From sequence record DRR378314_1440: a stretch of DNA of 35,840 nucleotides. One strand, given 5' to 3'. Of the stretch, positions 13,776 to 35,751 are shown in pieces. Numbering within the stretch: the stretch's first letter is position 1; each line of letters starts with the position of its first letter. A program made the position numbers and the translations under genes. The notes under the pieces were generated by a model that was given only the letters and a program-made list of their open reading frames with translations, had not been told where the DNA came from and searched no databases.

Positions 13776-13778
13776 ACC

Positions 13779-15161: not shown

Positions 15162-15163
15162 GC

Positions 15164-15180: not shown

Positions 15181-15214
15181 CCCTCACGGAGCCGCCGCAC
15201 GCGCAAGCGCAGCC

Positions 15215-17337: not shown

Positions 17338-17933
17338 GCTACGAAGAACCGCACTTGGGTTAAGCTCAGGTCGATGTCCTGAGACGGGAAGAAGACAATC
17401 AAGTCACGCCATTCTGCTGTCAGGTGGATGCCTTCTGACTGATCCAGCAGACAGAAATCCGCATGATGCCCCGGCGCGGTGGTGCTGATCAGATGCTTGT
17501 CGAAGAAGAAATCCCGGAACTTTCCATGCTGCCCGCTTCGCAGACACACCCGGGAAACGGCCGCAGATTGATGCGACTGCGACTTGATCATCACCCCAAC
17601 CAGACTCGCATCTTTCAGATCCAGCGCCCCCAGCACAAAATGCAGCGCCGTCCAACGGTTCTCCGAATGTGCCGTCGCGCGTAGGCGCAGCACATCGCCC
17701 ACGGGGCTGAGCACCGTAGTTTCCCGTGGGTTTAAAGGGTCCTGATCCATGCGTATGCCCGGCGACAGATCCACCCCAACAGGTACGGGCTCCGTGATCG
17801 AAAGCGCGCGCAATGCATCAATTCGCTTATTCACATCCCCCTGCCCGGCCACCAGGGATCTGACCATCGGCACCCGGTCAAGGGTTGGCCCCAGAATGCG
17901 CTTTGCAGCCTGTTTGGCGCGAGAGGTCACCAT
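17334..17933 (-). CDS. Hypothetical protein (~199 aa), predicted beta-rich
   Basis: ATG at 17933 preceded by GGAAGGA. Translationally coupled (ATGA) to the downstream GT2. Alternating hydrophobic strand-like segments. Confidence 0.7.
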   Translation of the reverse strand: MVTSRAKQAAKRILGPTLDRVPMVRSLVAGQGDVNKRIDALRALSITEPVPVGVDLSPGIRMDQDPLNPRETTVLSPVGDVLRLRATAHSENRWTALHFVLGALDLKDASLVGVMIKSQSHQSAAVSRVCLRSGQHGKFRDFFFDKHLISTTAPGHHADFCLLDQSEGIHLTAEWRDLIVFFPSQDIDLSLTQVRFFVA

Positions 17934-18030
17934 TTTGAAATCCTTCCACACAGATCGGCAAGGCCTCTGCGCCCCGCCAGCCGGCGCTCTATTAGACAGA
18001 AATGGCGTGTGCCACCAATCGCGATCACCC

Positions 18031-19218
<1,188 letters not shown>

Positions 19219-19343
19219 TCAAAATCACGCGCACCCTAAAGGGCGCCTCCGCCAGCGGCAAGCAGGCCCTGTCGCACTATCGGCTTTTTCCTCCCTGCCC
19301 CATTGGATATACGCGTATCCAGCAACCAGTCAGTCGGCCGCGC

Positions 19344-20399: not shown

Positions 20400-20442
20400 A
20401 TCCAGCCGTCACAGCCCAGCACAACACGCGGCCAGAACCTTA

Positions 20443-21567
20443 ATGAAAGTTATTCTTTACATCGGCCACCACAAGGTTGGCTCCACCGCCCTGCAGGCGT
20501 TTCTGGCCCGGAACTGGGCCGCCCTGGCGCGATCCGGCATCCTGTATCCCAGTGTCGACGGGCGCGGCTATGCTCAGAACCTGAGCCAACTTCTGAACAA
20601 GACCCAGCCAAAGCACCTGCCGCCCCATCTGCGCGAACCGCATAACGCGCTGGCCTACCAGATGATCGCCGACGTCAGTCGCCGCCCGATTCCAGATCAA
20701 TTCGGCCAGCTGCCGGGCACCGCCGCCATGCTAGATATGATCCGTCAGCAAACCGACGCGCTGGAACCGCATACGGTGATCCTCTGCGCCGAAGCCTTTG
20801 CCAATTTCGGCGAAGTCGGGCCGGATTTGATCACCCGCCTGTGCGCCGCGTTTCCGGCGGCGGAGTTCACCGTGTATTGCGCCCTGCGCCGCCCGGACGA
20901 ATACCTCGCCTCCTGGCACGGGCAGCGGTTGAAGGTCGGAGAACCCGCAGCCCCCCTGCGCAGCTCCGGGCTGAAGCATTACCTCAAGACCATACACTTC
21001 AACTACCGCACCGTCGTCAGCGCCTGGGTGGAGCGGGTGCCCGCGGCTCGGCTCATCCTACGCAACTATGCCGATATTCTGGCCACTGGCGGCTCGGTGG
21101 AGGATTTTTCCGAACACTGCGCCCTGTCCCTGCCGGACGACATCAAGCCGCAGGGGCGTGCCAACCCCAGCCTGCCGTTGGCGGCCTTTGCCGTGATGGA
21201 GCGCGCCAACAAGGCGCTTGCCCCGCAACCCCGGCATAATCTGTCGATGTTCCTGCAGCGGCAAGCTGGTGCTCTCTGCCCGGTGGCGAACCGTGATGTG
21301 GAAGTCTTTGGCGCCCCCCAGCGTGAGCAGATGCTGGCCGCCTTTCGCCCGCATGAAGCCTATCTGGCAGAGCTCATCGGCCAGCCCCGCTTTTTCGATG
21401 ATCTCGACAGCATCCTCATTCCGCGGACAGTGCCGGATCAGGACGCCGCACGGCAATTGCTGGACGTGATCGACCCTGAGACCATTCCCCACCCCATCCC
21501 GCGCGACTTCATCCGCTCTCTCAAGAGCAGTTTTGTCCCCCAACGTCAGGCGCAGCACCTTTCATGA
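20443..21567 (+). CDS. Sulfotransferase-fold protein, putative polysaccharide sulfotransferase
   Basis: ILYIGHHKVGSTALQ, VILCAEAF, YCALRRPDEYLASW, NPSL. Confidence 0.75.
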   Translation: MKVILYIGHHKVGSTALQAFLARNWAALARSGILYPSVDGRGYAQNLSQLLNKTQPKHLPPHLREPHNALAYQMIADVSRRPIPDQFGQLPGTAAMLDMIRQQTDALEPHTVILCAEAFANFGEVGPDLITRLCAAFPAAEFTVYCALRRPDEYLASWHGQRLKVGEPAAPLRSSGLKHYLKTIHFNYRTVVSAWVERVPAARLILRNYADILATGGSVEDFSEHCALSLPDDIKPQGRANPSLPLAAFAVMERANKALAPQPRHNLSMFLQRQAGALCPVANRDVEVFGAPQREQMLAAFRPHEAYLAELIGQPRFFDDLDSILIPRTVPDQDAARQLLDVIDPETIPHPIPRDFIRSLKSSFVPQRQAQHLS

Positions 21568-23384
21568 TCACTCTCCAGAACATCATCGCGCCAGAAATCG
21601 GCATCTGTACAGAAAACAGGCTCTATTACAGAGAAACTGGGGCTGTCGGACTGGATTTGGAGCAGGGGATTTACCGTGTTCCGCCCGGCTGCCGGATCGG
21701 GTTCGACACCTATTTCAACCTCTTCAATCTCGACAGCTGGATGGCCCACTGCAGCCTCTGCGGCCTGTTGCTGGAAATCAACGGCAGCGGCGAAGCCGAG
21801 GTCCGTGTCCACCAGGATCTTCCGGGGCGCTCCGGCGAGGTCATCTGGTCGCAAGTGGTCCGGCTCACAGCGGACGCTCCTCTGGTGCTGGATCTGGAGG
21901 ATCTGCTGCTCGAACCACATGGGGTGCTGTCGTTCAGTGTCACCGCCCTGTCGGAACCGGTCACACTCAGCCACGCCCGCTTTGCAACCGCCCACCTCCC
22001 CGACGTACGCCGCGAGACGCTGCCCGAGCTGGCGATTTCGATCACCACCTTCCAGCGCGAAACCGAGGTGGAGCGCACCGTGACCCGGCTCTGCGCCTTC
22101 CTGAAAACATTTGCCTATGGCGATCACATTCGCCTGCAGGTGGTCGACAACGGCCAAAGCGCCGCCCTGCCTGCCACGGACGGGCTGCATGTCTACCCCA
22201 ACCACAACTACGGGGGCGCCGGCGGTTTTGCCCGCGGCCTGCTCGAAGCCGAGGCTGCCGGGGTCAGCCATTGCCTCTTCATGGATGACGATGCCTCGTT
22301 TCATATGGAAAACATCGCCCGCGCCTACATGTTTCTGCTTCTTGCCCGCGATCCGCGCACCGCATTGGCCGGAGCGATGATCAATACCACCCATAAATGG
22401 GCGATCTGGGAAAGCGGGGCCTGGTTCAACGGCGCCTGCCGGCCGCTGTTCAATGGCGTTAACCTGCGCAACCGCGCCCGGATGATGAAGATGCAGCATG
22501 CCCAGACCGGCCCGCAGCCCGACACGCTCTATGGTGGCTGGTGGTTCTTTGCCTTCCCGGTTGCGGGGCTGCGCCACCACCCCTTTCCCTTCTTCGTGCG
22601 CGGCGATGATATCAGTTTTTCGCTGGCCAATGATTTTGCCATCCGCACCCTGAACGGGGTGGTCTCCTTTCAGGATGATTTCACCGAGAAGGAAAGCGCC
22701 CAGACGCTTTACCTCGATCTGCGCAACCATCTGATCCATCACCTGGTCTTCGACAGCCTCGCCCGCAGCCCGCTGGGCACGGCACGGGTGGCGATCCGTT
22801 TCATCCTGCGCTCGCTGCTGCGATTGCATTATTCCAGCGCCCAAGCTCAGCTATTGGCCTGGCGGGACGTGATGGAGGGACCAGAGTTCTTCGATACCAA
22901 TATCGACATGAGCGCCCGGCGCAGCCGCATCCGTGACATGGCCGGGGACGAAGCCTGGCAGCCGGTGGCCGACCTGCCGCACGCCACCCCGCGCAAACGG
23001 ATTTTCACCCGCGTGTCGCGCAAGCTGCGCACCGGCCTCGGCCTCCTGACCCTGAACGGTCACCTGATCCCCTTCTGGTCCCGTATGGGCAGTCGCATCC
23101 AGCAGGACATCAGCCAGCGAGGGCTGGTCTATCACGCGCTTGGAGCCGCAGAGATCACCTTCGCCAACACCAACCGCGACAAGGCCTATACCCTGCGCCA
23201 TTCCAAGCGACGGTTCTTTTGCATCGCTTGGGAAATGACACGCCTCACGGTCCGGTTCATGCGGGAATTCGATCAGCAAAAATCAACCTGGCGTCAGGGT
23301 TATACCACCATGACCACGGCGCAGTACTGGCAGGAAAAACTCGCTCCGATGGCGGGCCAAACAGGCTCTGAGCAGGAGAAATAG
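21564..23384 (+). CDS. GT2 glycosyltransferase, galactofuranosyltransferase (GlfT2)-like
   Basis: AISITTFQR, VVDNG, NYGGAGGFARG, FMDDDA, YGGWWFFAF, FFVRGDDISF. glf lies nearby. Confidence 0.82.
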   Translation: MITLQNIIAPEIGICTENRLYYRETGAVGLDLEQGIYRVPPGCRIGFDTYFNLFNLDSWMAHCSLCGLLLEINGSGEAEVRVHQDLPGRSGEVIWSQVVRLTADAPLVLDLEDLLLEPHGVLSFSVTALSEPVTLSHARFATAHLPDVRRETLPELAISITTFQRETEVERTVTRLCAFLKTFAYGDHIRLQVVDNGQSAALPATDGLHVYPNHNYGGAGGFARGLLEAEAAGVSHCLFMDDDASFHMENIARAYMFLLLARDPRTALAGAMINTTHKWAIWESGAWFNGACRPLFNGVNLRNRARMMKMQHAQTGPQPDTLYGGWWFFAFPVAGLRHHPFPFFVRGDDISFSLANDFAIRTLNGVVSFQDDFTEKESAQTLYLDLRNHLIHHLVFDSLARSPLGTARVAIRFILRSLLRLHYSSAQAQLLAWRDVMEGPEFFDTNIDMSARRSRIRDMAGDEAWQPVADLPHATPRKRIFTRVSRKLRTGLGLLTLNGHLIPFWSRMGSRIQQDISQRGLVYHALGAAEITFANTNRDKAYTLRHSKRRFFCIAWEMTRLTVRFMREFDQQKSTWRQGYTTMTTAQYWQEKLAPMAGQTGSEQEK

Positions 23385-23394
23385 GGCAGATCCG

Positions 23395-24048
23395 TCAGCG
23401 CAACGCGGATTCATGTACGGCGATGGCCTCTTCGAGGTCTTCGTAGTATTCCGCTTTGCCACCTTCCAGCACCACACCGGCATTGCAGAACTTGCGCACC
23501 TCGCCCATGGAGTGGTTGACCAGAATGGCGGAAGAGCTGCGCATCCGCTCGGCGAACACCGCCTGGCTCTTGCGTTTGAAGGACTGATCCCCCACTGCGG
23601 TGACCTCGTCCACCAGATAGGTATCGAATTTGATCCCCATCGAGGCCCCGAACGTCAGACGCGACCGCATGCCACTGGAATAGGTCCGCATCGGCATGTG
23701 ATAGGATCGGCCCAGCTCGGCGAACTCGCCCACGAAATGCACCAACTCATCGGTATCAACCCCGTAGATACGGGCAACGAAACAGACATTTTCCGCGCCC
23801 GTCAGATCCCCGTGAAACGAAGCCGCAAGCCCGACCGGCCAGGAAATCGTGCCATCGCTCAGCACCCGGCCATTATCGGCCGGCAGGGTTCCTGCGATGA
23901 TCTCCAGCAAGGTGGACTTGCCCGCCCCGTTGCGTCCCAGCAGCGCCAGAGACTTGCCCGTGGGCAGGGTCAGTGACAGGTCGTCGATCACCACCTTGCG
24001 CTCCCCCTTGATCCAGAAGGTCTTGGTCAGGTTTTCCAGCCGGATCAT
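23395..24048 (-). CDS. kpsT: Capsular polysaccharide ABC exporter ATP-binding protein
   Basis: Walker A GRNGAGKST, signature YSSGMRSRL, Walker B YLVDE, VGDQSF. 217 aa with no C-terminal extension. Confidence 0.95.
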   Translation of the reverse strand: MIRLENLTKTFWIKGERKVVIDDLSLTLPTGKSLALLGRNGAGKSTLLEIIAGTLPADNGRVLSDGTISWPVGLAASFHGDLTGAENVCFVARIYGVDTDELVHFVGEFAELGRSYHMPMRTYSSGMRSRLTFGASMGIKFDTYLVDEVTAVGDQSFKRKSQAVFAERMRSSSAILVNHSMGEVRKFCNAGVVLEGGKAEYYEDLEEAIAVHESALR

Positions 24049-24058
24049 GCCTGTTGCC

Positions 24059-25474
24059 TTATCGCCGGTCGCGAACCGAGTAGTAAATCAGGACCATGAT
24101 GGCCCAGCCCATCAGCAGAAACAGCCCGCCCAGAGCAGGAATCAGGTAACGGCGCGGATATTCGGAATCTTCGGCTCGTGTCGGATTGATATAGGTTGCC
24201 AGGTAGCGGCTTTGCCGGGTGGCCTCGTCCCGCGCCAGCTCCATCGAGGTCAGCGCCACACGATAGGATTGCTCGGCAAATTCCCGATCCACGGTCAGCC
24301 GCTCGAACTCGGAAATCAGTGCGGGATATGTCTCACCCGCGCCGCCGCCCTCGATGCTTTCGGAGGAGGCAAAGCTGGTGCGCTCCTGGTCGATCCGTTC
24401 GCGGATCACGGTGATGCGACGCTCCGCCGTGGCCAGACGCGGGTCATCACCGCTGACGGTCCCGCGCAACAGGTCATATTGCACCAAAGCCTCGGCCAGC
24501 TGCTGCTGAAGGTTGTTCATCACCCCCATACGCCCCTGGATATCCGCTTCCGGATCGACGATCCGAGTGCGGGTGCGAAACTGCACCATCGCCTCGCGCG
24601 CAGCTTTCAAACGCTCCAACGCCTCGTTCAGATCGGCACGAGCGTAGCGCATGGCATCTTCGCGCGCCTGTTCATTCAGAATATTGATGCGCGCCTGCGA
24701 ATGCGCCACGATCGCTTGGGTGATTGCCTGCGCCATGTCACGGTCATAGGCCACCACCTGGATCTCGGTCAGGCCGGAGCCACTGTCATAAGACACGCTG
24801 ACAATGCGCTGCCAGAACCAGATCAGATCCTCCACCGTTGCATCCGGCCAGATCGAGAAGGCCCAGTCCTTCGGCCAATGGGCGGCATAGTGATCGACAA
24901 GACCCAGTTCGGCATTGATCTCCTGGGCAAGCTCCTGGCTCTGGATGAATTCATAGAGGATATCACTGTCCGCCCCGGTGCCGCCGCCAGCACCGGCGAA
25001 CTGCGCCAGCCCGCCCAGCAGATCGGTGGCCGAGGCGCCCTCCTGGCTGCGGACCGTAAAGCCCGCCCGCGACACATACTGATCTTCCGCCACCACAAAG
25101 AGATACATCGTGATCGCCACCAGTGGCACCAAAACGACGGCCACAAAGCTGCCCAGCACGCCCCAGTGCCGTTTTTTCATCCGCGCCGGCTGTGCCACCG
25201 CCGGCACCGCTGTTGCAGACAGTTTCTTGTTCAGCTCGTGGACCTTGTCCTCGGCCGTCTTGGCCCGGTGGCGCAGGGCAGAGAGCTCCTTCTCCGCACC
25301 ATCCGGAACTGCCGGATTTTTTTGCGGTGGCGTTTTGGCGGGCGGTGTTTTGGCCGCTTTTTCCGTCTCGGAGGGGGGGGCCGTCTTGGCCTCGGCAGGT
25401 GCATCCTGCTTGGCATCAGAGGCAGGTGCCGGTGCATCGCCCGCAGATTTGATGGGGGTTACATTATCGCTCAC
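24059..25474 (-). CDS. kpsE: Capsule export inner-membrane adaptor / polysaccharide co-polymerase (KpsE/RkpR family)
   Basis: Two TM segments (…SFVAVVLVPLVAITMYLF…DQYVS…F; YPRR…LIYYSVRDRR) flank a coiled-coil periplasmic region. Pro/Ala/Lys-rich N-terminal extension. GTG start at 25474 is tentative. Confidence 0.88.
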   Translation of the reverse strand: MSDNVTPIKSAGDAPAPASDAKQDAPAEAKTAPPSETEKAAKTPPAKTPPQKNPAVPDGAEKELSALRHRAKTAEDKVHELNKKLSATAVPAVAQPARMKKRHWGVLGSFVAVVLVPLVAITMYLFVVAEDQYVSRAGFTVRSQEGASATDLLGGLAQFAGAGGGTGADSDILYEFIQSQELAQEINAELGLVDHYAAHWPKDWAFSIWPDATVEDLIWFWQRIVSVSYDSGSGLTEIQVVAYDRDMAQAITQAIVAHSQARINILNEQAREDAMRYARADLNEALERLKAAREAMVQFRTRTRIVDPEADIQGRMGVMNNLQQQLAEALVQYDLLRGTVSGDDPRLATAERRITVIRERIDQERTSFASSESIEGGGAGETYPALISEFERLTVDREFAEQSYRVALTSMELARDEATRQSRYLATYINPTRAEDSEYPRRYLIPALGGLFLLMGWAIMVLIYYSVRDRR

Positions 25475-25643
25475 AACGGCATCGCTTTTTAAAAGGCATA
25501 TCGGGCGAGTTATCACGACAAATGCCTCCGAGATCAATGGGCGGCTGAGGCTCTTTACAGGAAAGAGCCGTTTGTCACCACCGCAGCCTTCCTTCATAGT
25601 GCGCCCTGAACCTGTATCACCCCGTTGATTTCCCGAGAGTCTG

Positions 25644-26468
25644 ATGGCCGATTCCCCGCAGCAGCCTGTTCTTCCTGCCCTCACCCCGGTGCGCGGCAGC
25701 CCCAGACGCTTTGCAACCGCCCGAACGATCATGGCTCTGATCCTGCGGGAGATGTCCACCCGCTACGGGCGCACCCCCGGTGGCTATCTCTGGACCGTGC
25801 TGGAACCGCTGGCAGCGATCCTCTTTCTCAGCCTCGGCTTTTCTTTGATGTTGCGCAGCCCGGCACTCGGCAACAGCTTCCTGCTGTTTTATGCCACCGG
25901 CTACATGCCGTTTGAAATCTATATGAGTCTGTCGCGGACCTGCCGCCACGCAATCGGATTTTCCAAACCCCTGCTGCGCTATCCCGCAGTCACATGGATC
26001 GATGCCATGTTGGCCCGCCTGCTGCTGAACGCTCTGACCGGGGTCTTCAATTCCTTCCTGCTTCTCGGCGGCATCCTCCTGTTCACCGATGCGCAGGCCA
26101 TGCTGGATCCGGAACCGATCCTGTCCGCCTTGCTGCTGGCAATCCTGCTGGGGCTGGGCATCGGCTCCATCAATGCAGTCCTGTCCGCCTTCTTCCCGAT
26201 CTGGGATATCATCTGGAGCGTTGTGAACAGGCCGCTGTTCATCGCCTCCGGGATCTTCTTCCTCTATGATGATATGCCGCGCTTTGCTCAGGACATCCTG
26301 TGGTACAACCCTCTCATTCATATCGTCGGCCTGATGCGAACAGGGTTTTACCCAAGCTACGCGGCCTCCTATGTCAGTGAGCTTTACGTAATGTTCCTGA
26401 GCCTCGGGTTGACGGCTTTTGGCTTCTTGCTGCTGGCCCGTTTCAATCGCGACATACTGAACCGCTGA
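25644..26468 (+). CDS. kpsM: Capsular polysaccharide ABC exporter permease
   Basis: ALILREMSTRYGRTPGGYLWTVLEP, about six hydrophobic segments, SGIFF, WYNPLIH. Confidence 0.93.
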   Translation: MADSPQQPVLPALTPVRGSPRRFATARTIMALILREMSTRYGRTPGGYLWTVLEPLAAILFLSLGFSLMLRSPALGNSFLLFYATGYMPFEIYMSLSRTCRHAIGFSKPLLRYPAVTWIDAMLARLLLNALTGVFNSFLLLGGILLFTDAQAMLDPEPILSALLLAILLGLGIGSINAVLSAFFPIWDIIWSVVNRPLFIASGIFFLYDDMPRFAQDILWYNPLIHIVGLMRTGFYPSYAASYVSELYVMFLSLGLTAFGFLLLARFNRDILNR

Positions 26469-26476
26469 GTGCGTGT

Positions 26477-27478
26477 TCAGTCCCGTGGTTTGGCCAGATC
26501 CAACACCTGGGCGTGAGACATCGACGTCCGGCCCAACACCCCATCGCGAATCGCCCGGCGCAGCAACCGCAGGAACACCGGGGTATCCGCACCGTAGTGG
26601 CGCGCTTTCATCACCCACTTGGGTAATATCACCAGCAGCGCGGGCCAAAACATCAGCCCTGCCGCCATCCGATACAGGAACAGCAGATTGCGGTGGTAGT
26701 AATAGATCTTCCACAAGGGAGCGAGCCGCCCCCGCTGCACCGCCACCTGCCCCTCTGACCCGGCAAAGCTGGTCAGATCATGCTCAAAACGAACCCCCGG
26801 CTCAAAACCGATTCGCCCCCCCTGCTTGCTCAGGCCCAGCGTGTAGATGCCGTCATCACCATAGATGAACAGATTTGGATCAGGATAGCCGATCCGCCGC
26901 ACCGCCTCTGCCGAGATGAAAAACCCCACAAAGGAGGTGACATCGATCCCCCTGCCTTCTCCTTCATAGGCAGCGGGCGGAATGTGAAATCCCGAACGCC
27001 CGCCCCCCAGCACCGTGCGCAGGAATTCGCGCTGGTGCCAGAACGGGTTGCGTGAAGGCCGGTTCATCTCGCAGATTTCTCCGGATGGGAAATAGACCGC
27101 GGCCGCCATCGCATCCCATTTGCCGTCCGGCACCGCGTGAAAAGCCGCCAGCCCTCCCGGTTCCGGGCGGCCATCATCATCCATCACCACCAGCCAATCG
27201 GGCGCGTGCTGCTCCATCGCGTGACGCATGCCCATGGCAAAGCCCCCCGCTCCCCCGGAGTTCACTTTGCTAGACAACACATCAAGGCGCGGATCGCTCA
27301 AGCCAGCCAGCCATGCGCCGGTTCCATCCGTAGAGGCATTGTCCGCCACCACCACCATAGCCAGCTCTTCGGCCGGGCTTTCCAGCAAGCGCGCAAGCGT
27401 AACCTTCAGCTTATCGAGCCGGTTGTAGGTTACCACCACGGCCACCAGCCGGCATTGCGTCCCATCGGGGAAGGACAT
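26477..27478 (-). CDS. Glycosyltransferase family 2 (GlfT1/rhamnosyltransferase-like)
   Basis: ATG at 27478 after AAGGAG. VAVVVTYNR, ADNASTDGT, NSGGAGGF, VMDDD, SFVGF, FIYGDD, YYYHRN. Confidence 0.9.
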   Translation of the reverse strand: MSFPDGTQCRLVAVVVTYNRLDKLKVTLARLLESPAEELAMVVVADNASTDGTGAWLAGLSDPRLDVLSSKVNSGGAGGFAMGMRHAMEQHAPDWLVVMDDDGRPEPGGLAAFHAVPDGKWDAMAAAVYFPSGEICEMNRPSRNPFWHQREFLRTVLGGGRSGFHIPPAAYEGEGRGIDVTSFVGFFISAEAVRRIGYPDPNLFIYGDDGIYTLGLSKQGGRIGFEPGVRFEHDLTSFAGSEGQVAVQRGRLAPLWKIYYYHRNLLFLYRMAAGLMFWPALLVILPKWVMKARHYGADTPVFLRLLRRAIRDGVLGRTSMSHAQVLDLAKPRD

Positions 27479-27760
27479 ATTCGGGCACGCTCCTTGATTT
27501 TGGCCGTCTCGCGTCTCCCATACAGGCACAACGCCCGACTGACAAACCACGTCTCAACACACAATGCCCACCCCGCAAAGAGCGTCGCCCGGAAACCACC
27601 CCGCCCGTCGCTCCCGACAGGGCAGCTCTGACCTGAATGTCACAGCAGCCGTAGCAGTGCCCCACAGACAGCTCCCATGTTGACGCTCCCCTCCGTGACA
27701 GTATTGTGCGGCATGAACTTCCACCGTCATTTCCTGACTGCCATCAGGATTAGGATCTCA

Positions 27761-28873
27761 ATGCTGAAACTTCCGCTCCTGGTCGCCGCACTTGGCATCG
27801 CCCTCCTGCCCGCAGCCTGCTCACGCCTGCCCGGAGGCGCCCCCGCCAGCGAAGAGATCCTGCGATCCGCCTCACAGGCAGATGCGAATTTTGCGCTCTA
27901 CACGGTGAACCGTGCCTTTCTGCCCACCGTGGCGCACTGGCCCCCGACCGGCAAGCAGGAGAGCCTCGGCTGGATCAGAGCCAGTCGGGGCCCCAAGACC
28001 CAGATCATCCAACCCGGCGACCAGCTGACGTTGCGCATCTGGGACAGCAATGAAAGTTCACTGCTGAGCTCCGTCGGTCAGAAAATGGTACAGCTGCAGG
28101 ACGTGCGGGTCTCCGCCAACGGCAATGTCTTTCTGCCCTATGTCGGCGAAAAGAACGTCAATGGCATGACCCCGGAACTGGCGCGCGAAGAACTGCAGGC
28201 TGCCCTGGAGGTGATCGTGCCCTCCGCCCAGCTGCAACTCGACATGAAAGAAGGCCGCAACAACTCGGTCGATCTGGTGTCCGGTGTGGCGCGTCCCGGC
28301 ACCTATCCGATGCCGGATCGTAATTATTCGGTGATGGGGCTGATTGCCGCGGGTGGTGGCATTTCCTCCAGTCTGAACAATCCACAGATTCGCTTGATGC
28401 GGGGCGGACGCCTGTTCGGCACTTCGGTGGACAGCCTGTTGAACCACCCTCAGAAGGATACGCTGCTACGCGGTGGTGACCGTGTCTTTGTCGAAGAAGA
28501 CGAACGCTATTTCCTGTCGTTTGGGGCCACTGGAACCGAGGATCTCCACACGTTCACCAAGGATGACGTCTCGGCGATGGATGCCCTGTCGATCTCAGGC
28601 GGGTTTCAGGACAGCAAGGCCGACCCCAAAGGTCTGTTGATTCTGCGAGAATACTCTGCCTCAGCGGTGGCACCGGGCGTGCGGGGACCACGGCAGCAGC
28701 GAGTGGTCTTCACCCTTGACCTGACCACGGCAGAAGGGCTGTTCTCAGCCCGCAATTTCCAGATCAATCCCGGCGATCTGGTCATGGCCACCGAAAGCCC
28801 GATCAATGATGCTCTGACGATCTCCAACCTGATCGGCAATATCTTCGGCGTCTTCAGCCGCGCGGGTCTCTAA
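27761..28873 (+). CDS. wza: Polysaccharide export outer-membrane lipoprotein (OPX, Wza/KpsD family)
   Basis: Lipobox-like LPAAC, PES motif IQPGDQL...GNVFLPYVG, SLBB-like GVARPGTY...AAGG, INPGDLV, amphipathic C-terminal helix. Confidence 0.9.
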   Translation: MLKLPLLVAALGIALLPAACSRLPGGAPASEEILRSASQADANFALYTVNRAFLPTVAHWPPTGKQESLGWIRASRGPKTQIIQPGDQLTLRIWDSNESSLLSSVGQKMVQLQDVRVSANGNVFLPYVGEKNVNGMTPELAREELQAALEVIVPSAQLQLDMKEGRNNSVDLVSGVARPGTYPMPDRNYSVMGLIAAGGGISSSLNNPQIRLMRGGRLFGTSVDSLLNHPQKDTLLRGGDRVFVEEDERYFLSFGATGTEDLHTFTKDDVSAMDALSISGGFQDSKADPKGLLILREYSASAVAPGVRGPRQQRVVFTLDLTTAEGLFSARNFQINPGDLVMATESPINDALTISNLIGNIFGVFSRAGL

Positions 28874-29910
28874 CCCCAGCGCCCCACCGCCAGACAGGCG
28901 AGACCATCGCCCGTCTGAGCGACACCGGCGCCATCATAGCTGAGCGGCGTGACGCTGCTGGCGCTGAGCGCGGTGGCGGCGACCATGCGCGGTGCGCTCT
29001 CGGTCGAGGTCAGGCTCACCACCGGCGGGGCATCAAAGGCCAGGGGAAAGCTCCAACTGCTGCCGCCCGTGCGCGCCGCCCAGCAGATCTGGGTGCCATC
29101 CGCCAGCCGCAGCCAGTCGCCATCCCCGGTGCTGCCCTGCTCCAGCACCGCGCCCGTGGGTACTCCACCGGACAGGGCCACCGCCCCCAAAAGATTGCCC
29201 GGCCCATAGCCCCAATCCGCCCGCATCAGCCGCCCGGTGGTGGTATCGGTGGCAGAGGTTTGCACCGCTGCACCACTCAGATGACCGCTGGCGGGGTCCG
29301 CGCGCAGGGCTTCGGTCCAGTTGCTACCGTCGGGGCTTACTTTCAGCGAAAAGGATGTATCGCCCGCAAGCCCCATCTCCGCATGGCCACTCCAGCCCGA
29401 CTGGAACAGCAGACTGGCGGTGTCGCTGGCACCGGACTTGTTGATCTTCAGCTGATGGCCCGCGCCGGCATGGGTCAACAGCGTAGCCGGGCCGGAAACC
29501 GCCAGCGGGTTCTGCGCATCCGGGCTGGTGGCAATGCCCAGCCGGTCGCGTACCTCTGCCTCTGCCGCCGTCCAGGCGCCACCCTGAAACACCAGCAACT
29601 GACCCGTGTCACGATGCCAGGCCCGCCAGCCCTCTCCGGCGTCAAGAAATCTCCAGGCGCCCTCACACCAGGCGGCCAGCCGACCGCCCTGCCCGGCCCA
29701 GACTCCGGTGGGCGTGCCTCCCAGCGCATGCAGCTCTCCTGCGCTGGGGTCTGCGGGCGGGGTCTCCTGGCCGATCCCCTCCAACACCAGCTGCACCAGA
29801 AGATCGAGCTGCAGCAGGGCCTCGTTATGGGTGACATGTTTCTGCGCCTGAGCCGGCATCAGATAGGGCAGATCCAAGCGGGTGGAACGGTCGGCGGGGA
29901 TGGGGGGCAT
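28870..29910 (-). CDS. DUF2793-domain protein with phage tail-fibre-like C-terminus
   Basis: LPYLMPAQAQKHVTHNEALLQLD...PPADP...W.GQ...W.F...GWRAW (DUF2793). GHQLKINK...SLLFQSGWSGHAEMGLAG. Tail-fibre-tip-like GAVLEQGSTGDGDWLRLADGTQICW...WSFPLAF...AVGRW. Confidence 0.85.
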   Translation of the reverse strand: MPPIPADRSTRLDLPYLMPAQAQKHVTHNEALLQLDLLVQLVLEGIGQETPPADPSAGELHALGGTPTGVWAGQGGRLAAWCEGAWRFLDAGEGWRAWHRDTGQLLVFQGGAWTAAEAEVRDRLGIATSPDAQNPLAVSGPATLLTHAGAGHQLKINKSGASDTASLLFQSGWSGHAEMGLAGDTSFSLKVSPDGSNWTEALRADPASGHLSGAAVQTSATDTTTGRLMRADWGYGPGNLLGAVALSGGVPTGAVLEQGSTGDGDWLRLADGTQICWAARTGGSSWSFPLAFDAPPVVSLTSTESAPRMVAATALSASSVTPLSYDGAGVAQTGDGLACLAVGRWG

Positions 29911-30029
29911 GGAATGATCCTTCGGTTGCAGCCAGCAGGCTCCGATCCTGCCTGTCCCACCTCAAGACACCACCAACAGCGCGCCCGCCCCGTTAACCAG
30001 ACCCGCTCTCGCCGAACCCTGCCGGATAC

Positions 30030-30059
30030 AAAACGGGCCCCTGCAAAGCAGGAGCCCGT
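30030..30059 (-). terminator. Rho-independent terminator downstream of the gfcA-like gene
   Basis: Minus strand ACGGGCTCCTGC-TTT-GCAGGGGCCCGT followed by TTT. GC-rich stem with a G-U pair. Confidence 0.75.
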
Positions 30060-30122
30060 CTGAAACTGTTCTTACACCGGGTGCAGCGGCGTCGTCACGT
30101 CGCCGAAAAGCCCGATATCGGA

Positions 30123-30371
30123 TTAGTTGGTGGTGGTGGTGGTGGTGGTGGTATCGTCGTCGTCGTTCACGACCACGCCAATCACAACCGCTGCGGCAAT
30201 AACGCTGGCTGCGATGCCTGCGGCACCCAGACCGCCAACACCCAGACCTGCGCCTGCGCCTGCGCCTGCACCGCCGCCTGCGGTTGCGCCAGCTTCACCA
30301 CCAGTGGTTTGGGCGAAGGCACCGGTTGCGGCCAGCATTGCGATCGCGGAAGCTGCGATAATATTTTTCAT
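30123..30371 (-). CDS. Small exported Gly/Ala-rich protein with poly-Thr tail, GfcA/YjbE-like
   Basis: SD GGAG, signal peptide MKNIIAASAIAMLAATGAFA, GA-rich linker, hydrophobic helix, tail DDDDTTTTTTTTN encoded by (ACC)8 at 30129-30152. Lies next to yjbF/yjbH homologs. Confidence 0.8.
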   Translation of the reverse strand: MKNIIAASAIAMLAATGAFAQTTGGEAGATAGGGAGAGAGAGLGVGGLGAAGIAASVIAAAVVIGVVVNDDDDTTTTTTTTN

Positions 30372-30524
30372 AACTTAAAACTCCTGTGGAGACTTGGGAT
30401 CCTGAAACGGACACTATGTGAGCGCCCCTGACATTTCAACGCCCCCAATATCACCAAGATCCTTACATTTCAGTTTTTATTTCGCCGTTGCCGAAAAAAC
30501 GCGCGCAACATGTGCGAATCCACC

Positions 30525-31220
30525 TCAATCCACCACCTGACGTGTGCGAATATAGCCAAGACTTGGTCCCGCCCATTGCCGGGACTGCCGCATCCGGCCT
30601 CCTCGCACGTCAATCCAGTAGTCATTGATCACCTTGCCCCCCGAATCATCGCTGCACCGTTCCTGCAGATATCGGGTCGGGTAGCTCCGCCCCACGATGT
30701 CCAGAGCAACGGTCCCCCGATCGTGCAAATCACAGGCCAGCCGAACCCGATAAGAGCCACTGTCGTCGCCGCGGAACTCATAAAGCCGCGCCCCGCCGGA
30801 GGCCGGTCCCATGGCCCCCTGCCCGTCCGCAGGCACCGCCGCGGACAGCATCCCGCCCCGCAACCCCCGGGTCGAGATCAACATGCCATCGCGGAACCCA
30901 AAGCTGATGTTGTCCACCGTGCGCCACAGCTCAATTCGGCCCGGCAGATCATCGCTGCGAGCCAGCTGCAGGGTCACGTAATCGCGCAGCTCTTCCGTCT
31001 CGATCACCACTTCGATATGCGGATCCTCGATGGTGTCCAGCAGCGCCCGCGTCAGGGTTGGCGGCTGTGGCTTGCTACCGCCCCCGAACCGCTGCTTGAT
31101 CTGATCGCGGATCACCTGCCCGACTTCGATCTCCAGCGATTGATCTTCGGGGCCCTGCGCGCAGGCCACCAGAAGGCTCAGCGCCGCAACGCCACCAAGA
31201 CTGCGAAACAGATGCCTCAT
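30525..31220 (-). CDS. yjbF: YjbF/GfcB family lipoprotein (group 4 capsule)
   Basis: Lipobox LVAC, W.T.D...RDGMLISTRGL, E.C...NDYWID...RQSRQW. ATGA overlap with the yjbH-like gene. Confidence 0.82.
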   Translation of the reverse strand: MRHLFRSLGGVAALSLLVACAQGPEDQSLEIEVGQVIRDQIKQRFGGGSKPQPPTLTRALLDTIEDPHIEVVIETEELRDYVTLQLARSDDLPGRIELWRTVDNISFGFRDGMLISTRGLRGGMLSAAVPADGQGAMGPASGGARLYEFRGDDSGSYRVRLACDLHDRGTVALDIVGRSYPTRYLQERCSDDSGGKVINDYWIDVRGGRMRQSRQWAGPSLGYIRTRQVVD

Positions 31221-33418
31221 TCCCAGAACCTCGCGCGCTGGTCTTCCAGGCTCTTGCGGTGGGTCACCCGCACCTGTTCGTAAAGCCGCCCCGGGACGCT
31301 CACACGTTGGCCACCGTCACGCTGCACCGGCCGGATCGTCAGCCCGTAGGCATTGCGCGACGGCTTGCCCAGCAACCAGTTCAGCGGAATGCTCAGCCGG
31401 ATGCCCTTGTCAAAGGAGCCCTCGCCAAAATCATCGGCCGAGACATCCGTTAGCGTGAAGAACCCGCCCAAACGCCAGCCGTTGTTGAAGGTCCGCGTCA
31501 AGGACACCGTCCCACCGACATCTCCGGCCAGGTAGCGGCCCGCATCCACCTGCAGCAGGTAGTTCTTCGGCAGTTCAAGATAGGCAGAGGCATGTCCGGT
31601 CAGCACGTCGTAATCGCGAAAGCCCAACCGCTGGTCAAAATCGCGCTGTCGCACGTAGTTCAACTCAGCGCCAAGCCCCAGACGGCTGTCCACCGGCTTC
31701 CACAACAGCTCGCCCGAGAGGCCGCCATACATGCTCTCGAGATAGCCCACCGTGGCGCGGGCATAGAGGTTGCGCCCCGGCCTCCAGCGCCGCTCCAGAT
31801 AGAGACGGTCCAGCGTGGTATCGGCCTGGGCATATTCCCGTACATTGGTCCGAACCTGCGGCAGACGCGATGTGCCGGGACGGCCATCGGCCACATTGCC
31901 CCAGATCCGTTGCCGTACCGCCCCTGCCAGCTTCCAGCCCGGAGCCGGACTGTAGCTTGCCGTCAGATCCACGCCGACATCCAGTCGGAAGGGGACCGAG
32001 GGGTCGAAATAGGATGGCGACGTATAGGGGCTGAACGCATAGGAAAAGGCCGGATAAAGCTCTTCGGATTGCAGCGCATCGGGCGCCGCCTGTCCGGCAT
32101 CCTGCACCGTGGCAACCGCCCAGATCGCATCGGGGGCCTCGGGCGAGAACTCCAGCGCTTCCAGATCGGAGCGGCGCAGCACCACCGCCGACAGCCCAAG
32201 CCCCCCTGCCGTTGGCACGATGCGGAAAGTCTCGACCGAGGGGGGCAGGCTGCGCGCCATCGCCCGTGCCGTGCGCCCCACCGCCAATGCGGCAGAGTGA
32301 TATCTGGTGTTGCGGATACGCACTTCGGCCTTGGTGCCCTCCAGGGTCACGCTCTCCAGGATGAGACCATCCTGCTTCAGAGATTCGGCCAGCAGGTCGC
32401 GGGTCTTCAGCTTGGCCGTGCGGCTGCCCGCCCAGCTCTGTGCCCACATCGCCTCATCCGGCGCCCAGCTGCTGCGGGGCGCAACCGGAGACGGCGCCGG
32501 CACCTGCATCTTGGTCGCGGGATGGCGCGGGTTCATCTGGATCTGTGCCGAAATGCCAAATTCGGACCCGTAGAGATAATAGGCCCCCAGACGCAGCTGG
32601 CGGCTGGCCTGATATTCGACCCCGAAGTTGAAATCCGACTTGCGTTCAAAAACCTGCGCGCTGCCGCTTTCCAGCGCATAGGCATCAGAGGAATATTCCG
32701 CCTTCACACCCCATTTGCCATGGCGCCACTCCACCCCGGCAAAGGGCGCGACATCACCGCGGAACCACTGGTCGGTTGACAGTTCGCCGCCCGTGTCACC
32801 AGCGGTGAAACTGCCGCGGTTCCCAAGGGTGGCGATCGCCCCGCTGGACCCGAACCGCCCCCAGCCGAGACCAGCGGACACCTTCAGCCGCCCTGGCAGC
32901 GCTTCGGGATCAAAGGTCTTTGTGGCGACGATGTATTCGCTGCCGAACAGGCCCGTACCGGCAAAATCCTGCAGTCCCACAGCCACGGCGGGACGATAAC
33001 GTCCCTCGTTCCAGAGCTGAAAGCGCACATCGAAGTTGCGGTCGTAGTAGGTGTCGAAGCCAAACAGCAGCTGGTTCGGGTTGCCGTTCTGGATGCCGGT
33101 GTAGCGGAAGGCCACCGTCATCCAGGGCAACGCCTGCACTTGCAGGTTGGTGCGGAACTGACCTGCAAACCAGCTGACCGACGTGGCAAACTGTGCATCC
33201 GGCAAGGCCTCCGCACTTGGCATGTCCACCAGCCCCGGCGCCCCATAGAAGTTGAGGCTCGGCGTCTCGGGCCAGGCAAATCCCTGCGGCGTGTTTTCCT
33301 CAGCCCGCAGAGCCTGCGGTAGCAGCGGCGCCGCCAGCAACCCGGCCAGGACAACGGAAGGCAGCCGCATCAAAAAACGCCCGGTCAGGCGTGGCAGGGG
33401 CAGGGTCGGGAAAGTCAC
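31217..33418 (-). CDS. yjbH: YjbH/GfcD family outer-membrane beta-barrel protein
   Basis: NFYGAPGLVDMPSA, YYDRNFD, AVGLQDFAGTGLFGSEYIVATK, GLGWGR, GYLESMYGG, GRYLAGDVG, FGEGSFDKG. Start uncertain (33442 ATG, 33418 GTG after AAGGA, or 33370 ATG). Confidence 0.9.
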   Translation of the reverse strand: MTFPTLPLPRLTGRFLMRLPSVVLAGLLAAPLLPQALRAEENTPQGFAWPETPSLNFYGAPGLVDMPSAEALPDAQFATSVSWFAGQFRTNLQVQALPWMTVAFRYTGIQNGNPNQLLFGFDTYYDRNFDVRFQLWNEGRYRPAVAVGLQDFAGTGLFGSEYIVATKTFDPEALPGRLKVSAGLGWGRFGSSGAIATLGNRGSFTAGDTGGELSTDQWFRGDVAPFAGVEWRHGKWGVKAEYSSDAYALESGSAQVFERKSDFNFGVEYQASRQLRLGAYYLYGSEFGISAQIQMNPRHPATKMQVPAPSPVAPRSSWAPDEAMWAQSWAGSRTAKLKTRDLLAESLKQDGLILESVTLEGTKAEVRIRNTRYHSAALAVGRTARAMARSLPPSVETFRIVPTAGGLGLSAVVLRRSDLEALEFSPEAPDAIWAVATVQDAGQAAPDALQSEELYPAFSYAFSPYTSPSYFDPSVPFRLDVGVDLTASYSPAPGWKLAGAVRQRIWGNVADGRPGTSRLPQVRTNVREYAQADTTLDRLYLERRWRPGRNLYARATVGYLESMYGGLSGELLWKPVDSRLGLGAELNYVRQRDFDQRLGFRDYDVLTGHASAYLELPKNYLLQVDAGRYLAGDVGGTVSLTRTFNNGWRLGGFFTLTDVSADDFGEGSFDKGIRLSIPLNWLLGKPSRNAYGLTIRPVQRDGGQRVSVPGRLYEQVRVTHRKSLEDQRARFWE

Positions 33419-33574
33419 GCGGGGCAATCCTTGCTCATTCATCTGTCTGGCATCTGTCTGGTCCCGCCGGCGTCTGCTGTCATCCGGGACGGGCACCTGT
33501 CTGTTGTCTCGCTTACTGCCCTACCGGTTCGCTCTGATCAACGGTCAAAGCCGGTTTGTTGTGGCCTGTGGCAC

Positions 33575-35467
33575 TCAGGACGTTTTCCGATGCAGGTCGG
33601 ATTGCACATAGCCTTCGACCCACCGCAGGATGACCTGACGTGCGCCCTCTTCATCCCCTCCGGCCACCGCCTGCCGCAGCGCGCGCAAGAAGGCCGCCAC
33701 CTCGATTTCCGACAGCGTCGCCTCGCGGGCACAGAAGATCTTGGGGTGAGCTGTGTGGATCAGTTCGGTGGACAGCGTCAGTTCCTCTTCCAGCTTCTCC
33801 CCCGGGCGCAGGCCGATAATGTCGATGGCAATATCGCCCTCCGGATGATCCGCATCACGCACGCTGTATCCCGCGCTCTCGATCACCTGCCGGGCCAGCT
33901 GCAGGATCGACACCGGCTCGCCCATGTCGAGGACAAAGACCTCGCCCCCGCCCGCCTCGGCTCCGGCCTGCAATACCAGTTGCACCGCTTCGCGGATGGT
34001 CATGAAATAGCGTTTGACCCGCGGATCGGTCACGGTGATCGGACCGCCACGGCTGATCTGTTCCTGAAACAGCGGAATGACCGAGCCCGAAGAGCCCAGG
34101 ACATTGCCAAACCGCACCATGGTGAACACCGTCTTTGCCCCCGGGCTGTGCGCAAGGGTGCGGGTGGCCATGTCCTGGATGATCAGCTCCGCCATGCGTT
34201 TGGAGGCCCCCATCACATTGGTCGGGCGCACCGCCTTGTCAGAGGAAATCAGGATAAAACGCTCCACCCCGAATTCCGCCGCCGCCCGTGCCAGCGTCTG
34301 GGTGCCAAAGACATTGTTGGCCAGCCCCGGCAACGGGTTTGCCTCCACCAGGGGGACATGTTTATAGGCCGCCGCATGCAGTACCACCTGCACCCCGTGA
34401 CGCTCCAGCACCCGGCGCACCTGACGAGGGTCGGTGACCGACCCCAGCACCGGCACCAGCTCGATATCGGTGCCGGTCACCCGCTGCGACAGTTCCTGAT
34501 GGATGGTGTAAAGCGCCAGTTCCGACAGCTCGTACAGCACCAGCTTGGTCGGATGGCAGGCCAGAATTTGCCGGCTGAGTTCAGAGCCGATCGAGCCACC
34601 GGCCCCAGAGACCAGCACCACCCGGCCCGCATAGGACTCCGCACAGCCCTGCAGCGACACATCGCAAGCATCGCGGCTGAGAAAGCTTTGCGGGGGCACC
34701 GGCGTCAGCTTGTCGACCAGCGCCTCTTCTCCGATGAGCTGAGCAAAGGAGGGCAGGGCCTGCACTTCCAACCCCAGCGCCTGCAACCGCTGAATGATCT
34801 GCGCCTGTTTCGGCTGACTGTGCGATGGCATCGCCAGCAGCACCCGTTTGACATTGCGGGCCTTCACCATCTCGGAAATGCGGGAGGGTGCATAAACTGG
34901 CAATCCCATCAGGGTCAGCCCCTGCAGGGATTTGTTGTCATCCACGAAGGCCACCGGATCGATTCCCTCATGAGAGCGCAGCGCCTGCGCCAGCTGGGTT
35001 CCGGTATTGCCCGCGCCATAGATCAGCACCCGTGCCCGGGGCCGTGCCCGGCGATAGAGGGCCAGGACCACCTGCAGCATCAGAGCGCGGGTGCCCACCA
35101 TCAGCAGCAGATAGATAAGGCCAAAGACCACATGCACGCCCGATGGGAGCTCTGGCCCAAAGACAGCGCAGAGCGCGGCCTCCGCCGAAGCCACCACGAT
35201 GGCAAGGACGGCCGTCTGGCTGACTGCGTGGCGTTCATAGGCAATCAGTTGAACTTTCGGCAGTCCCAGCCAATAGGACAGCCCCGCGGCCAACAGCAGG
35301 ATATAGGGCAAAACCGGCAGCATTTGCCCCAGCAGCGTTAGCGCAGAAATCGGCATGTCCTGCAGCAGAAAGGCAAACAGCAGTGCCAGCGGAAGCAACA
35401 GCAAATCCAGCGCCAGGAAAATCGTCGCCTTGCTCTGACGCGTCAGCCGCTCCAGAAATTTTAACAT
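33575..35467 (-). CDS. capD: Membrane-bound UDP-GlcNAc 4,6-dehydratase (CapD/WbpM/PglF family)
   Basis: ATG at 35467 after GAGGTGG. Four N-terminal TMs, LIYGAG, VSGAGGSIGSEL, HAAAYKHVP, SSDKAVRPTNVMGASKR, VRFGNVLGSSGSV, GLRPGEKL. Confidence 0.95.
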   Translation of the reverse strand: MLKFLERLTRQSKATIFLALDLLLLPLALLFAFLLQDMPISALTLLGQMLPVLPYILLLAAGLSYWLGLPKVQLIAYERHAVSQTAVLAIVVASAEAALCAVFGPELPSGVHVVFGLIYLLLMVGTRALMLQVVLALYRRARPRARVLIYGAGNTGTQLAQALRSHEGIDPVAFVDDNKSLQGLTLMGLPVYAPSRISEMVKARNVKRVLLAMPSHSQPKQAQIIQRLQALGLEVQALPSFAQLIGEEALVDKLTPVPPQSFLSRDACDVSLQGCAESYAGRVVLVSGAGGSIGSELSRQILACHPTKLVLYELSELALYTIHQELSQRVTGTDIELVPVLGSVTDPRQVRRVLERHGVQVVLHAAAYKHVPLVEANPLPGLANNVFGTQTLARAAAEFGVERFILISSDKAVRPTNVMGASKRMAELIIQDMATRTLAHSPGAKTVFTMVRFGNVLGSSGSVIPLFQEQISRGGPITVTDPRVKRYFMTIREAVQLVLQAGAEAGGGEVFVLDMGEPVSILQLARQVIESAGYSVRDADHPEGDIAIDIIGLRPGEKLEEELTLSTELIHTAHPKIFCAREATLSEIEVAAFLRALRQAVAGGDEEGARQVILRWVEGYVQSDLHRKTS

Positions 35468-35751
35468 GCTTTCCACCTCACCGTCGGAGTTTTCCTCCAG
35501 TGCCCCGTTTTTTTTGAAACCCGAATTGCTCAATAATTCTGAACAAAATCCCCACGTGCCCGACGCCAATCCTTAGCATCTGCAGTATTACACGCCATAG
35601 TTTTTCCGCGACTGAACATAAAACTACGATATTTCCCTGCCACCTGTCGTTAATCTGCACACGTATCGGCAGAGTCACGCCGCTGAAGCCCAAGCATGCA
35701 TCAAAAAAAACGCGGAGGCGTGGCTTCGCGCCATCGATGATCCACCGCGCG

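Follow-up and report, generated by a model that had tools for sequence, protein, structure and literature searches.

A probable gene transfer agent tail fibre encoded in a plasmid-type capsule export locus

The 35,840-nt stretch of DNA analysed here (record DRR378314_1440; hereafter the window, with coordinates counted from its first letter) carries a kps-type locus for ATP-binding cassette (ABC)-transporter-dependent capsule export, in which kpsM, kpsT, kpsE, a gene for an outer-membrane polysaccharide export (OPX) protein, yjbF and yjbH are all present, and within it a single gene for a tail fibre of the Rcc00171/DUF2793 family (Table 1). An earlier sequence-only reading of this DNA had placed that gene between wza and a gfcA-like gene, and this arrangement was confirmed: the fibre gene and wza are convergent and their stop codons overlap by 4 nt. 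The same reading had reported no other phage gene and no scar resembling an attachment site, and our searches agree, as a Pfam scan of 34 open reading frames (ORFs) of the window yielded no phage families, no tRNA was found in the window and no convincing repeats flank the fibre gene. The scanned ORFs likewise include no sheath, tube or baseplate genes of a tailocin cluster. The product of the gene is probably a tail fibre, the receptor-binding protein, belonging to a gene transfer agent (GTA) of the host of the type known from Rhodobacter capsulatus (RcGTA), and the gene lies outside the particle gene cluster as it does in that species.

Analysis of the protein bore out the earlier description of a DUF2793 N-terminus joined to a C-terminus like the tip of a tail fibre. 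The Pfam family PF10983 (DUF2793) matches residues 28–113 (E 8.3e-29; 99.8 bits against a cut-off of 27), and nine PHROG families match the protein, including phrog_2712 ('tail fiber'), which spans residues 117–345 (E 1e-21). In a sequence search of the PDB, residues 12–141 matched 8gtc_S (E 4.3e-6), a baseplate chain of roseophage vB_DshS-R4C deposited under the name 'Ribonuclease III', and residues 233–345, with the terminal GRW included, matched the side fibre of the F2 pyocin, 25ve_A (E 2.4e-6). The motif QAQKHVTHN in the N-terminal part is invariant across 118 sequences. An AlphaFold2 model of the monomer, built from 118 homologs, has a mean pLDDT of 80.5, with values above 94 in the foot (residues ~250–346) and low confidence at residues ~140–175. 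Comparison of this model with known structures, a check proposed in the sequence-only reading, placed the fibres of R1/R2 pyocins, gp53 of phage AP22, the JBD30 baseplate and R4C at the top of the Foldseek ranking (6cl5_A, E 3.3e-6; 6cxb, TM-target 0.56; 4mtm, TM-target 0.52). The structures 6CXB and 4MTM have been fitted into the tail-fibre density of RcGTA (Bardy 2020) and, judged against the description given there, the monomer model appears to have the same rod-knob-foot architecture with a lectin-like foot.

The reading frame is intact. Comparison with the genes of the Tritonibacter mobilis plasmids described below gave dN/dS values of 0.15–0.16 for the fibre gene, made up of 0.24 for residues 1–120, 0.09 for residues 121–275 and 0.11 for residues 276–346; the corresponding values for its neighbours are 0.07–0.09 (wza), 0.16 (yjbF) and 0.11–0.15 (yjbH). 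By these measures the gene is under purifying selection and looks functional. Its G+C content (0.688, versus 0.614) is the highest in the window because of codon position 2 and a Gly+Ala content of 28%, and G+C at the third codon position (GC3, 0.78) matches that of the neighbouring genes.

Table 1. Features of the window that are discussed in the text
Feature	Coordinates	Strand	Basis
Tail-fibre gene, Rcc00171/DUF2793 family	28870–29910	-	ORF, 346 aa; PF10983; PHROGs tail fiber
DUF2793 domain, residues 28–113, putative baseplate-proximal part	29572–29829	-	Pfam; PDB 8gtc_S; invariant motif
C-terminal knob end and lectin-like foot, residues 233–346	28873–29214	-	25ve_A; Foldseek; pLDDT
GAAGGA ribosome-binding site	29918–29923	-	read from sequence
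GTTAAC, CtrA half-site-like element, 87 nt before the ATG	29992–29997	-	sequence
Intrinsic terminator after yjbE-like gene	30025–30061	-	hairpin + UUUUGU
wza/kpsD-type outer-membrane polysaccharide export protein	27677–28873	+	Poly_export + SLBB
yjbE/gfcA-like small secreted Gly/Ala-rich, poly-Thr protein, 82 aa	30123–30371	-	ORF + composition
yjbF (GfcB-like lipoprotein)	30525–31220	-	PF11102, E 1.1e-18
yjbH	31217–33496	-	PF06082, E 5e-209
capD-type nucleoside-diphosphate sugar epimerase/dehydratase	33575–35569	-	PF02719, E 4.5e-114
GT2 glycosyltransferase between kpsM and wza	26477–27550	-	PF00535
kpsM	25644–26468	+	ABC2_membrane
kpsE, start uncertain	24059–25759	-	TIGR01010 BexC/CtrB/KpsE, E 7.6e-61
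kpsT	23395–24048	-	ABC_tran
RTX/serralysin-C-terminal calcium-binding protein	1–1506	-	
RTX/serralysin-C-terminal calcium-binding protein	2467–4710	+	

Some details of the surrounding genes bear on their annotation. The start of wza may be at 27761, and its alignment with plasmid wza genes starts at 27740. The product of the 82-aa ORF upstream of the fibre gene starts with a signal-like sequence, contains a Gly/Ala repeat and ends in a DDDD-T9 tail; it finds no match in Pfam or NCBIfam, and the ORF is called yjbE/gfcA-like by position and composition only. No homolog of yjbG was identified in the window. A relative of the GT2 glycosyltransferase, 54% identical, lies between kpsM and the fibre gene in another of the loci that we collected (L048). 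Beyond kpsT, a region of ~20 kb holds glycosyltransferases, glf, ugd and genes for two proteins with a repeats-in-toxin (RTX)/serralysin C-terminus. Proteins with such C-termini recur beside fibre and glycan genes not only in the window but also in the T. mobilis plasmids and in those of Phaeobacter, where a type I secretion system is close by; outside the window they lie at L143 (4964–8679) and L002 (3866–6418).

Megablast matched the window region to 49 roseobacter plasmids, the best match being plasmid unnamed2 of Tritonibacter scottomollicae (NZ_CP136705.1), which is 93% identical on the yjb-capD side, followed by two plasmids of T. mobilis at 77–80% identity. All three Tritonibacter plasmids are non-mobilizable RepA/ParAB replicons of rep_cluster_1016, and the window itself appears to come from a Tritonibacter-like roseobacter, in which it would be part of a polysaccharide plasmid or chromid of RepA/ParAB type. 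The T. mobilis plasmids share the gene order wza, fibre, small ORF, yjbF, yjbH, capD, parB, parA, repA, in which the fibre gene occupies the same slot as in the window and encodes a DUF2793 protein, also of 346 aa, that is 82% identical to that of the window; the slot of the 82-aa ORF is filled by a hypothetical gene in all three Tritonibacter plasmids. Gene content differs between the two T. mobilis plasmids, and their fibres are identical at 339 of 346 residues. Between the epimerase gene and wza the window has an extra 17-kb block (10585–27739) that is absent from this slot in all three plasmids, whose kps genes are found beyond repA. The block contains genes for a methyltransferase, ugd, three GT2 enzymes, glf, kpsT/E/M and a further GT2 enzyme, as well as three ORFs without family matches (19215–23384). 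Despite this difference in glycan genes, the foot of the window fibre is 81–85% identical to that of T. mobilis, with a dN/dS of 0.11.

The best-studied relative is rcc00171 of R. capsulatus, which the sequence-only reading had described as a DUF2793 gene outside the main cluster, adding that recipient capsule is needed for RcGTA adsorption; the literature bears out both points, capsule being the RcGTA receptor (Hynes 2016; Alim 2023). According to Hynes 2016, rcc00171 carries DUF2793, is co-regulated with RcGTA and is essential for gene transfer, sits directly downstream of three genes predicted to function in exopolysaccharide (EPS) synthesis or export, and has plasmid-borne homologs in 7 of 21 Rhodobacterales genomes, with phage-mediated transfer inferred for some homologs. 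Its product has 371 aa (Bardy 2020) and binds capsule (Alim 2023). As fibres of this type are known to be encoded off-cluster, by polysaccharide export genes and sometimes on plasmids, the 'orphan' condition of the window gene is the normal state. In R. capsulatus SP108 (L017) a 371-aa DUF2793 gene directly follows kpsM, kpsE and kpsT, in agreement with Hynes 2016, and on its other side come a GT2 gene, rmlA and, farther on, rmlB; the product of this DUF2793 gene is 40%, 60%, 76% and 30% identical to the window protein over residues 1–120, 121–232, 233–275 and 276–346, respectively. The two fibres thus share the DUF2793 N-terminus, a knob that is 60–76% identical, a lectin-like foot and an off-cluster position beside kps-type export genes, whereas the window protein is shorter (346 aa versus 371 aa) and only 30% identical in the foot, and its gene is of plasmid type, converges with wza and lies beside yjbEFH and not directly after kpsT.

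More distant relatives are encoded by phages. A total of 272 phage records match the window fibre, the best at ~40% identity over residues 5–214, and all three phages inspected (RcRhea, RDJL Phi 1 and RcSimone-Hastad) have their DUF2793 gene immediately after a g15-like gene. The phage DUF2793 fibres (RDJL Phi 1 gp85, RcRhea gp19, RcSimone-Hastad gp6 and R4C 8gtc_S) are homologous to the window protein over the N-terminal 200 residues (28–42% identity) but have longer, unrelated C-termini. A copy located after g15 in a phage-like cluster (genome G005) is 43%, 33%, 18% and 14% identical to the window protein over the same four segments. In a quick IQ-TREE tree of ~210 N-terminal columns and 84 rows, in which the phage rows form long branches, all 80 cellular fibres, that of the window included, fall on one side of a branch with 95 support in the Shimodaira-Hasegawa-like approximate likelihood ratio test (SH-aLRT), with the three phage fibres and the after-g15 copy on the opposite side; the window fibre groups with T. 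mobilis (SH-aLRT 100). The fibres of R/F-type pyocins and AP22 gp53 (6CL5, 6CXB, 25VE, 4MTM) share the fold of the foot, and that of the F2 pyocin also shares detectable sequence similarity with it, down to the terminal GRW, but the window has no tailocin cluster and its fibre begins with DUF2793 instead of a pyocin baseplate adaptor. The head spikes encoded by ghsA/B (rcc01079/80) offer a parallel in gene order, being GTA receptor-binding genes beside the polysaccharide genes rcc01081-86 (Hynes 2016; Alim 2023); they belong to another protein family, and the adjacent glycan is a demonstrated receptor there and only a candidate here. The GTA tailspike TspA is rcc02623, a different protein, and identity of the window gene with it was therefore rejected.

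The distribution of the fibre gene among relatives follows that of GTA genes. In five genomes checked, those of Ruegeria lacuscaerulensis, R. capsulatus SP108, Phycobacter sedimenti, Thalassovita mangrovi and Puniceibacterium sediminis, PF10983 has 1, 1, 1, 1 and 2 matches and PF13547 (GTA_TIM, g15) also 1, 1, 1, 1 and 2, in that order, and the two families lie on separate contigs in all five with the exception of a second, phage-like pair in Puniceibacterium. The arrangement most like that of the window is found in Phycobacter sedimenti (G003), where the fibre gene converges on wza and genes for an epimerase and a sugar transferase come next, then capD, yjbH and yjbF. This genome has a complete RcGTA-type cluster of terminase, protease, capsid, connectors, tube, g12, g13 and megatron between housekeeping genes; no fibre gene follows g15 there, and the sole DUF2793 gene is that of the wza/yjb locus. 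Among family genomes, 246 of 301 match the fibre at E<=1e-10 and 88 of 101 are positive for g15. For the 101 genomes, 79 have both genes, 9 have g15 without the fibre, 4 have the fibre without g15 and 9 have neither (odds ratio 19.8, p 1.1e-5). This agrees with the report of the DUF2793 fibre in 225 of 293 GTA genomes, where it co-evolves with GTA genes (Kogay 2024). Ruegeria (now Tritonibacter) mobilis 45A6 has been described as a producer of GTA-like particles (McDaniel 2012).

DUF2793 genes also occur in another setting. Many genomes contain a second g15 gene, whose open frame spans ~1324 aa (1367 and 1348 aa in two), and a DUF2793 ORF, mostly of 364 aa (range 364–438), ~1.5–2.5 kb from its GTA_TIM match (genome and contig G005:C31, at L102 8147–17555, G024:C2, G037:C20, G053:C36, G006:C1, G073:C203, G033:C19, G091:C1 and G045:C23); in the one case inspected, L102 of G005, the fibre gene directly follows g12-g15. 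The pair appears to mark a prophage, or a second GTA-like element, that is widespread and retains the gene order of phages. Short DUF2793 ORFs (237–261 aa in five genomes, with 606 aa in G031) are found ~1.7–2 kb from the GTA_TIM match of g15 in G018:C4, G027:C1, G028:C104, G017:C23, G016:C16 and G031:C1, and the position of the fibre gene, in the cluster or relocated to glycan loci, therefore varies by lineage.

Upstream of the fibre gene, the sequence-only reading had marked a terminator at ~30030–30059. We found there a 14-bp hairpin (30031–30061) followed by UUUUGU, with a folding energy of -25.7 kcal/mol and a z-score of -5.5 (0 of 200 shuffles were as good); a generic consensus terminator scan did not list it. 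This terminator separates the fibre gene from the yjb operon. A scan for sigma-70-type promoters found nothing, and neither did an Rfam scan of 28500–30700. The GTTAAC element of the window has counterparts at -89/-88 before the fibre genes of the T. mobilis plasmids, and the sequence TTAA-N7-TTAA is the CtrA box. We counted such motifs in 80 upstream regions of 200 nt each and compared them with 500 shuffles. The pentamer TTAAC, on either strand, occurs in 31 regions (shuffle mean 12.0, max 24), GTTAAC in 18 (mean 2.1, max 7), a site at -115 to -75 in 17 (mean 2.4, max 9) and the full TTAA-N7-TTAA box in 3 (mean 0.07, max 2), namely those of Jannaschia, Yoonia and Maritimibacter genomes (L016, L063, L077). 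In a count over 82 regions, TTAAC was present in 33, compared with 11 of 278 control stretches 3–5 kb away, which are mostly coding and make a lenient control. The element upstream of the window gene suggests that its expression may be controlled by CtrA. Putative CtrA half-sites have been described in the promoters of rcc00171, the head-spike genes and the lysis genes (Sherlock & Fogg 2022).

We then surveyed the best 80 of 594 confirmed fibre loci, all from different species and with flanks of at most 10 kb per side, by tblastn with a panel of proteins from the window and the loci that covered polysaccharide export, glycosyl transfer, nucleotide-sugar metabolism, the phage proteins g12-g15 and the tape measure; these loci are phylogenetically non-independent and were chosen by similarity to the query. 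Recurrence of the linkage to glycan genes, which the sequence-only reading had marked for checking, was evident: polysaccharide genes lie within 10 kb of the fibre gene in 61 of the 80 loci, as opposed to 3 of 40 control windows of 20 kb, which were placed at fixed positions across 14 genomes (Fisher p 1.6e-13). Among the fibre loci, 21 have export genes (kpsMTE, wza, yjbF/H), 40 have sugar or glycosyltransferase genes only and 19 have neither; the control windows gave 2, 1 and 37, respectively, and 0 with phage genes. For export genes alone the difference has a Fisher p of 0.006, and one of the two control matches is 37 kb from the fibre gene of that genome. Homologs of phage g12-g15 or of the tape measure were found within 10 kb in 0 of the 80 fibre loci, and Pfam annotation of four fibre loci agrees with the glycan linkage. 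Placement in a polysaccharide locus has already been described for this family and is here found to be usual.

Fibre homologs are also present in 146 plasmids of PLSDB, 140 of them non-mobilizable, from Phaeobacter (58), Sulfitobacter (16), Leisingera (13), Cereibacter (13), Ruegeria (6) and others. Each of 57 Phaeobacter plasmids of 65–70 kb (including NC_018288.1 of P. inhibens DSM 17395) carries one 418-aa fibre at 90–100% identity; in the one inspected, from P. inhibens P92, it lies between RTX-type genes, with a rhamnose operon beyond them, and GDP-fucose genes. These polysaccharide ('biofilm') plasmids are comparable to the window: they are extrachromosomal replicons, with rhamnose/GDP-fucose and RTX-type genes, on which a DUF2793 fibre gene is present too. 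They differ from it in replicon type (rep_cluster_735 versus 1016) and in the longer fibre with an unrelated C-terminus (11–20% identity). For a homolog of the Phaeobacter type on plasmid NZ_CP083559.1 of Leisingera sp. S132 (H106), the annotation includes a peptidase G2 autoproteolytic (intramolecular chaperone) domain, which indicates exchange of C-terminal modules within the fibre family.

The reading of the window gene as the fibre of a GTA of its host draws on family membership, fold, purifying selection, a conserved slot, the lack of phage neighbours and the recurring linkage to glycan genes. We infer that the protein is incorporated into particles in the window's host. Transcription would start from a promoter of the gene itself, beyond the yjbE terminator, and the gene may be a member of the late GTA regulon, as the GTTAAC element suggests. 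The protein would trimerise, its conserved N-terminal DUF2793 part would dock on the 'megatron' (g15) of the baseplate at the domain that binds fibres, and its lectin-like foot would bind a surface polysaccharide of recipient cells. Several observations weigh against this account. In T. scottomollicae the fibre gene is a remnant (L001 3518–3815, corresponding to 28870–29944 of the window) annotated as two tiny hypothetical genes, with wza and the yjb genes intact; its start codon and DUF2793 domain are gone because of deletions of 83 bp (29056–29138) and 705 bp (29240–29944), and the gene is therefore dispensable there. The TTAAC motif is missing from 49 of the 80 upstream regions and, in its exact form, from the 200 nt upstream of the R. 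capsulatus ortholog, and the window has only a half-site and no full TTAA-N7-TTAA box. No NCBIfam model matches the fibre protein. In addition, of the 13 genomes in which no g15 match was found, 4 nevertheless possess a fibre homolog, an observation that would also suit a domesticated lectin or adhesin that has left the particle and acts in the capsule or biofilm biology of the plasmid-bearing cell. Such a role would fit the permanent residence of the fibre in polysaccharide or 'biofilm' plasmids, and there is a precedent in TspA, a GTA-associated protein that, according to a preprint, works detached from particles. We nevertheless consider it improbable: no signal peptide is evident in the translated N-terminus by eye (no predictor was run), the attachment region with QAQKHVTHN, for which a free lectin would have no need, is the most strictly conserved motif block among the 118 sequences, the fibre co-occurs strongly with g15, and it co-evolves with GTA structural genes (Kogay 2024). 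The existence of phage homologs, together with the transfer by phages inferred for some family members (Hynes 2016), raises the question of whether the gene has no present function and was either left behind by a decayed prophage or recently brought in by a phage. This we regard as highly improbable in view of the intact frame, the dN/dS of 0.15, a GC3 like that of the neighbours, the occupation of the same slot in the T. mobilis plasmids and the position of the window gene among cellular fibres in the tree; a prophage remnant was rejected on the intact frame, purifying selection and absence of phage genes, tRNA and convincing repeats from the window.

The GTA-fibre reading could be extended, without being excluded, by the co-inheritance of receptor and adhesin that the sequence-only reading had put forward. 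The fibre would then have as its ligand the polysaccharide that the surrounding locus produces or exports, a possibility that we hold to be tentative; a similarly uncertain corollary is that selection keeps fibre and glycan together, so that the GTA targets cells with the same replicon in a kin- or greenbeard-like manner and acquisition of the replicon resets both. Several findings favour it. Glycan linkage recurs (61 of 80 loci versus 3 of 40 controls), as does carriage by plasmids, with 146 in PLSDB and one fibre kept in each of the 57 Phaeobacter plasmids. The R. capsulatus fibre binds capsule (Alim 2023), and head-spike genes are similarly adjacent to capsule genes (Hynes 2016). Across 75 fibres, C-terminal identity correlates with the sharing of flank proteins (Spearman 0.24; partial 0.236 with the N-terminus controlled; permutation p 0.001), and N-terminal identity does so less (0.10), although this analysis ignores species phylogeny and the flanks include non-glycan genes. 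Among 116 fibre pairs with N-terminal identity of at least 60%, flank share is 0.28 in the 36 pairs with C-termini at least 50% identical and 0.018 in the 56 pairs below 30%. The C-termini form 36 clusters at 40% identity, the largest of which, with 30 members, includes the window, T. mobilis, Ruegeria and R. capsulatus. At the strain level, however, the Tritonibacter comparison gives no support: the tip has remained much the same despite the extra 17-kb glycan block relative to T. mobilis, nearly identical fibres are found in T. mobilis plasmids of differing content, and T. scottomollicae retains the locus without the fibre. The capsule genes of the R. capsulatus receptor, rcc01081-86, are not beside rcc00171 and purified Rcc00171 was reported not to degrade capsule (Hynes 2016; Alim 2023), 19 of the 80 loci have no glycan gene within 10 kb, and the linkage may have been inherited from one ancient insertion beside kps genes. 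The co-inheritance hypothesis is plausible and testable. As a general proposition for the Rhodobacterales, that the fibre gene moved out of the particle cluster and was kept by selection in polysaccharide loci, with adhesin and glycan inherited as a unit and GTA exchange specific to the replicon, it appears to us somewhat more doubtful still.

On present evidence the window gene is an ordinary, already described kind of GTA component. The location of the fibre gene beside EPS or export genes and the existence of plasmid homologs have been reported previously (Hynes 2016), as has capsule binding (Alim 2023). We found no systematic survey of fibre neighbourhoods in the literature, although the supplements to Hynes 2016 and Kogay 2024 may list neighbourhoods. 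The new elements are the quantified, order-wide association of the fibre with polysaccharide genes, a candidate shared promoter element, and the match of the window to Tritonibacter polysaccharide plasmids, of which those of T. mobilis hold the fibre gene in the corresponding position. The benefit of GTAs is believed to be confined to close kin, so that delivery must be restricted, and kin restriction through polysaccharide receptors has been discussed (Kogay 2024). Genetic linkage of the fibre with its glycan ligand, if real, would provide a simple heritable basis for restricted GTA delivery, an idea that can be tested in tractable roseobacters with curable plasmids such as T. mobilis and Phaeobacter; if it is true, one plasmid gained or lost could be enough to redraw the groups within which genes are exchanged.

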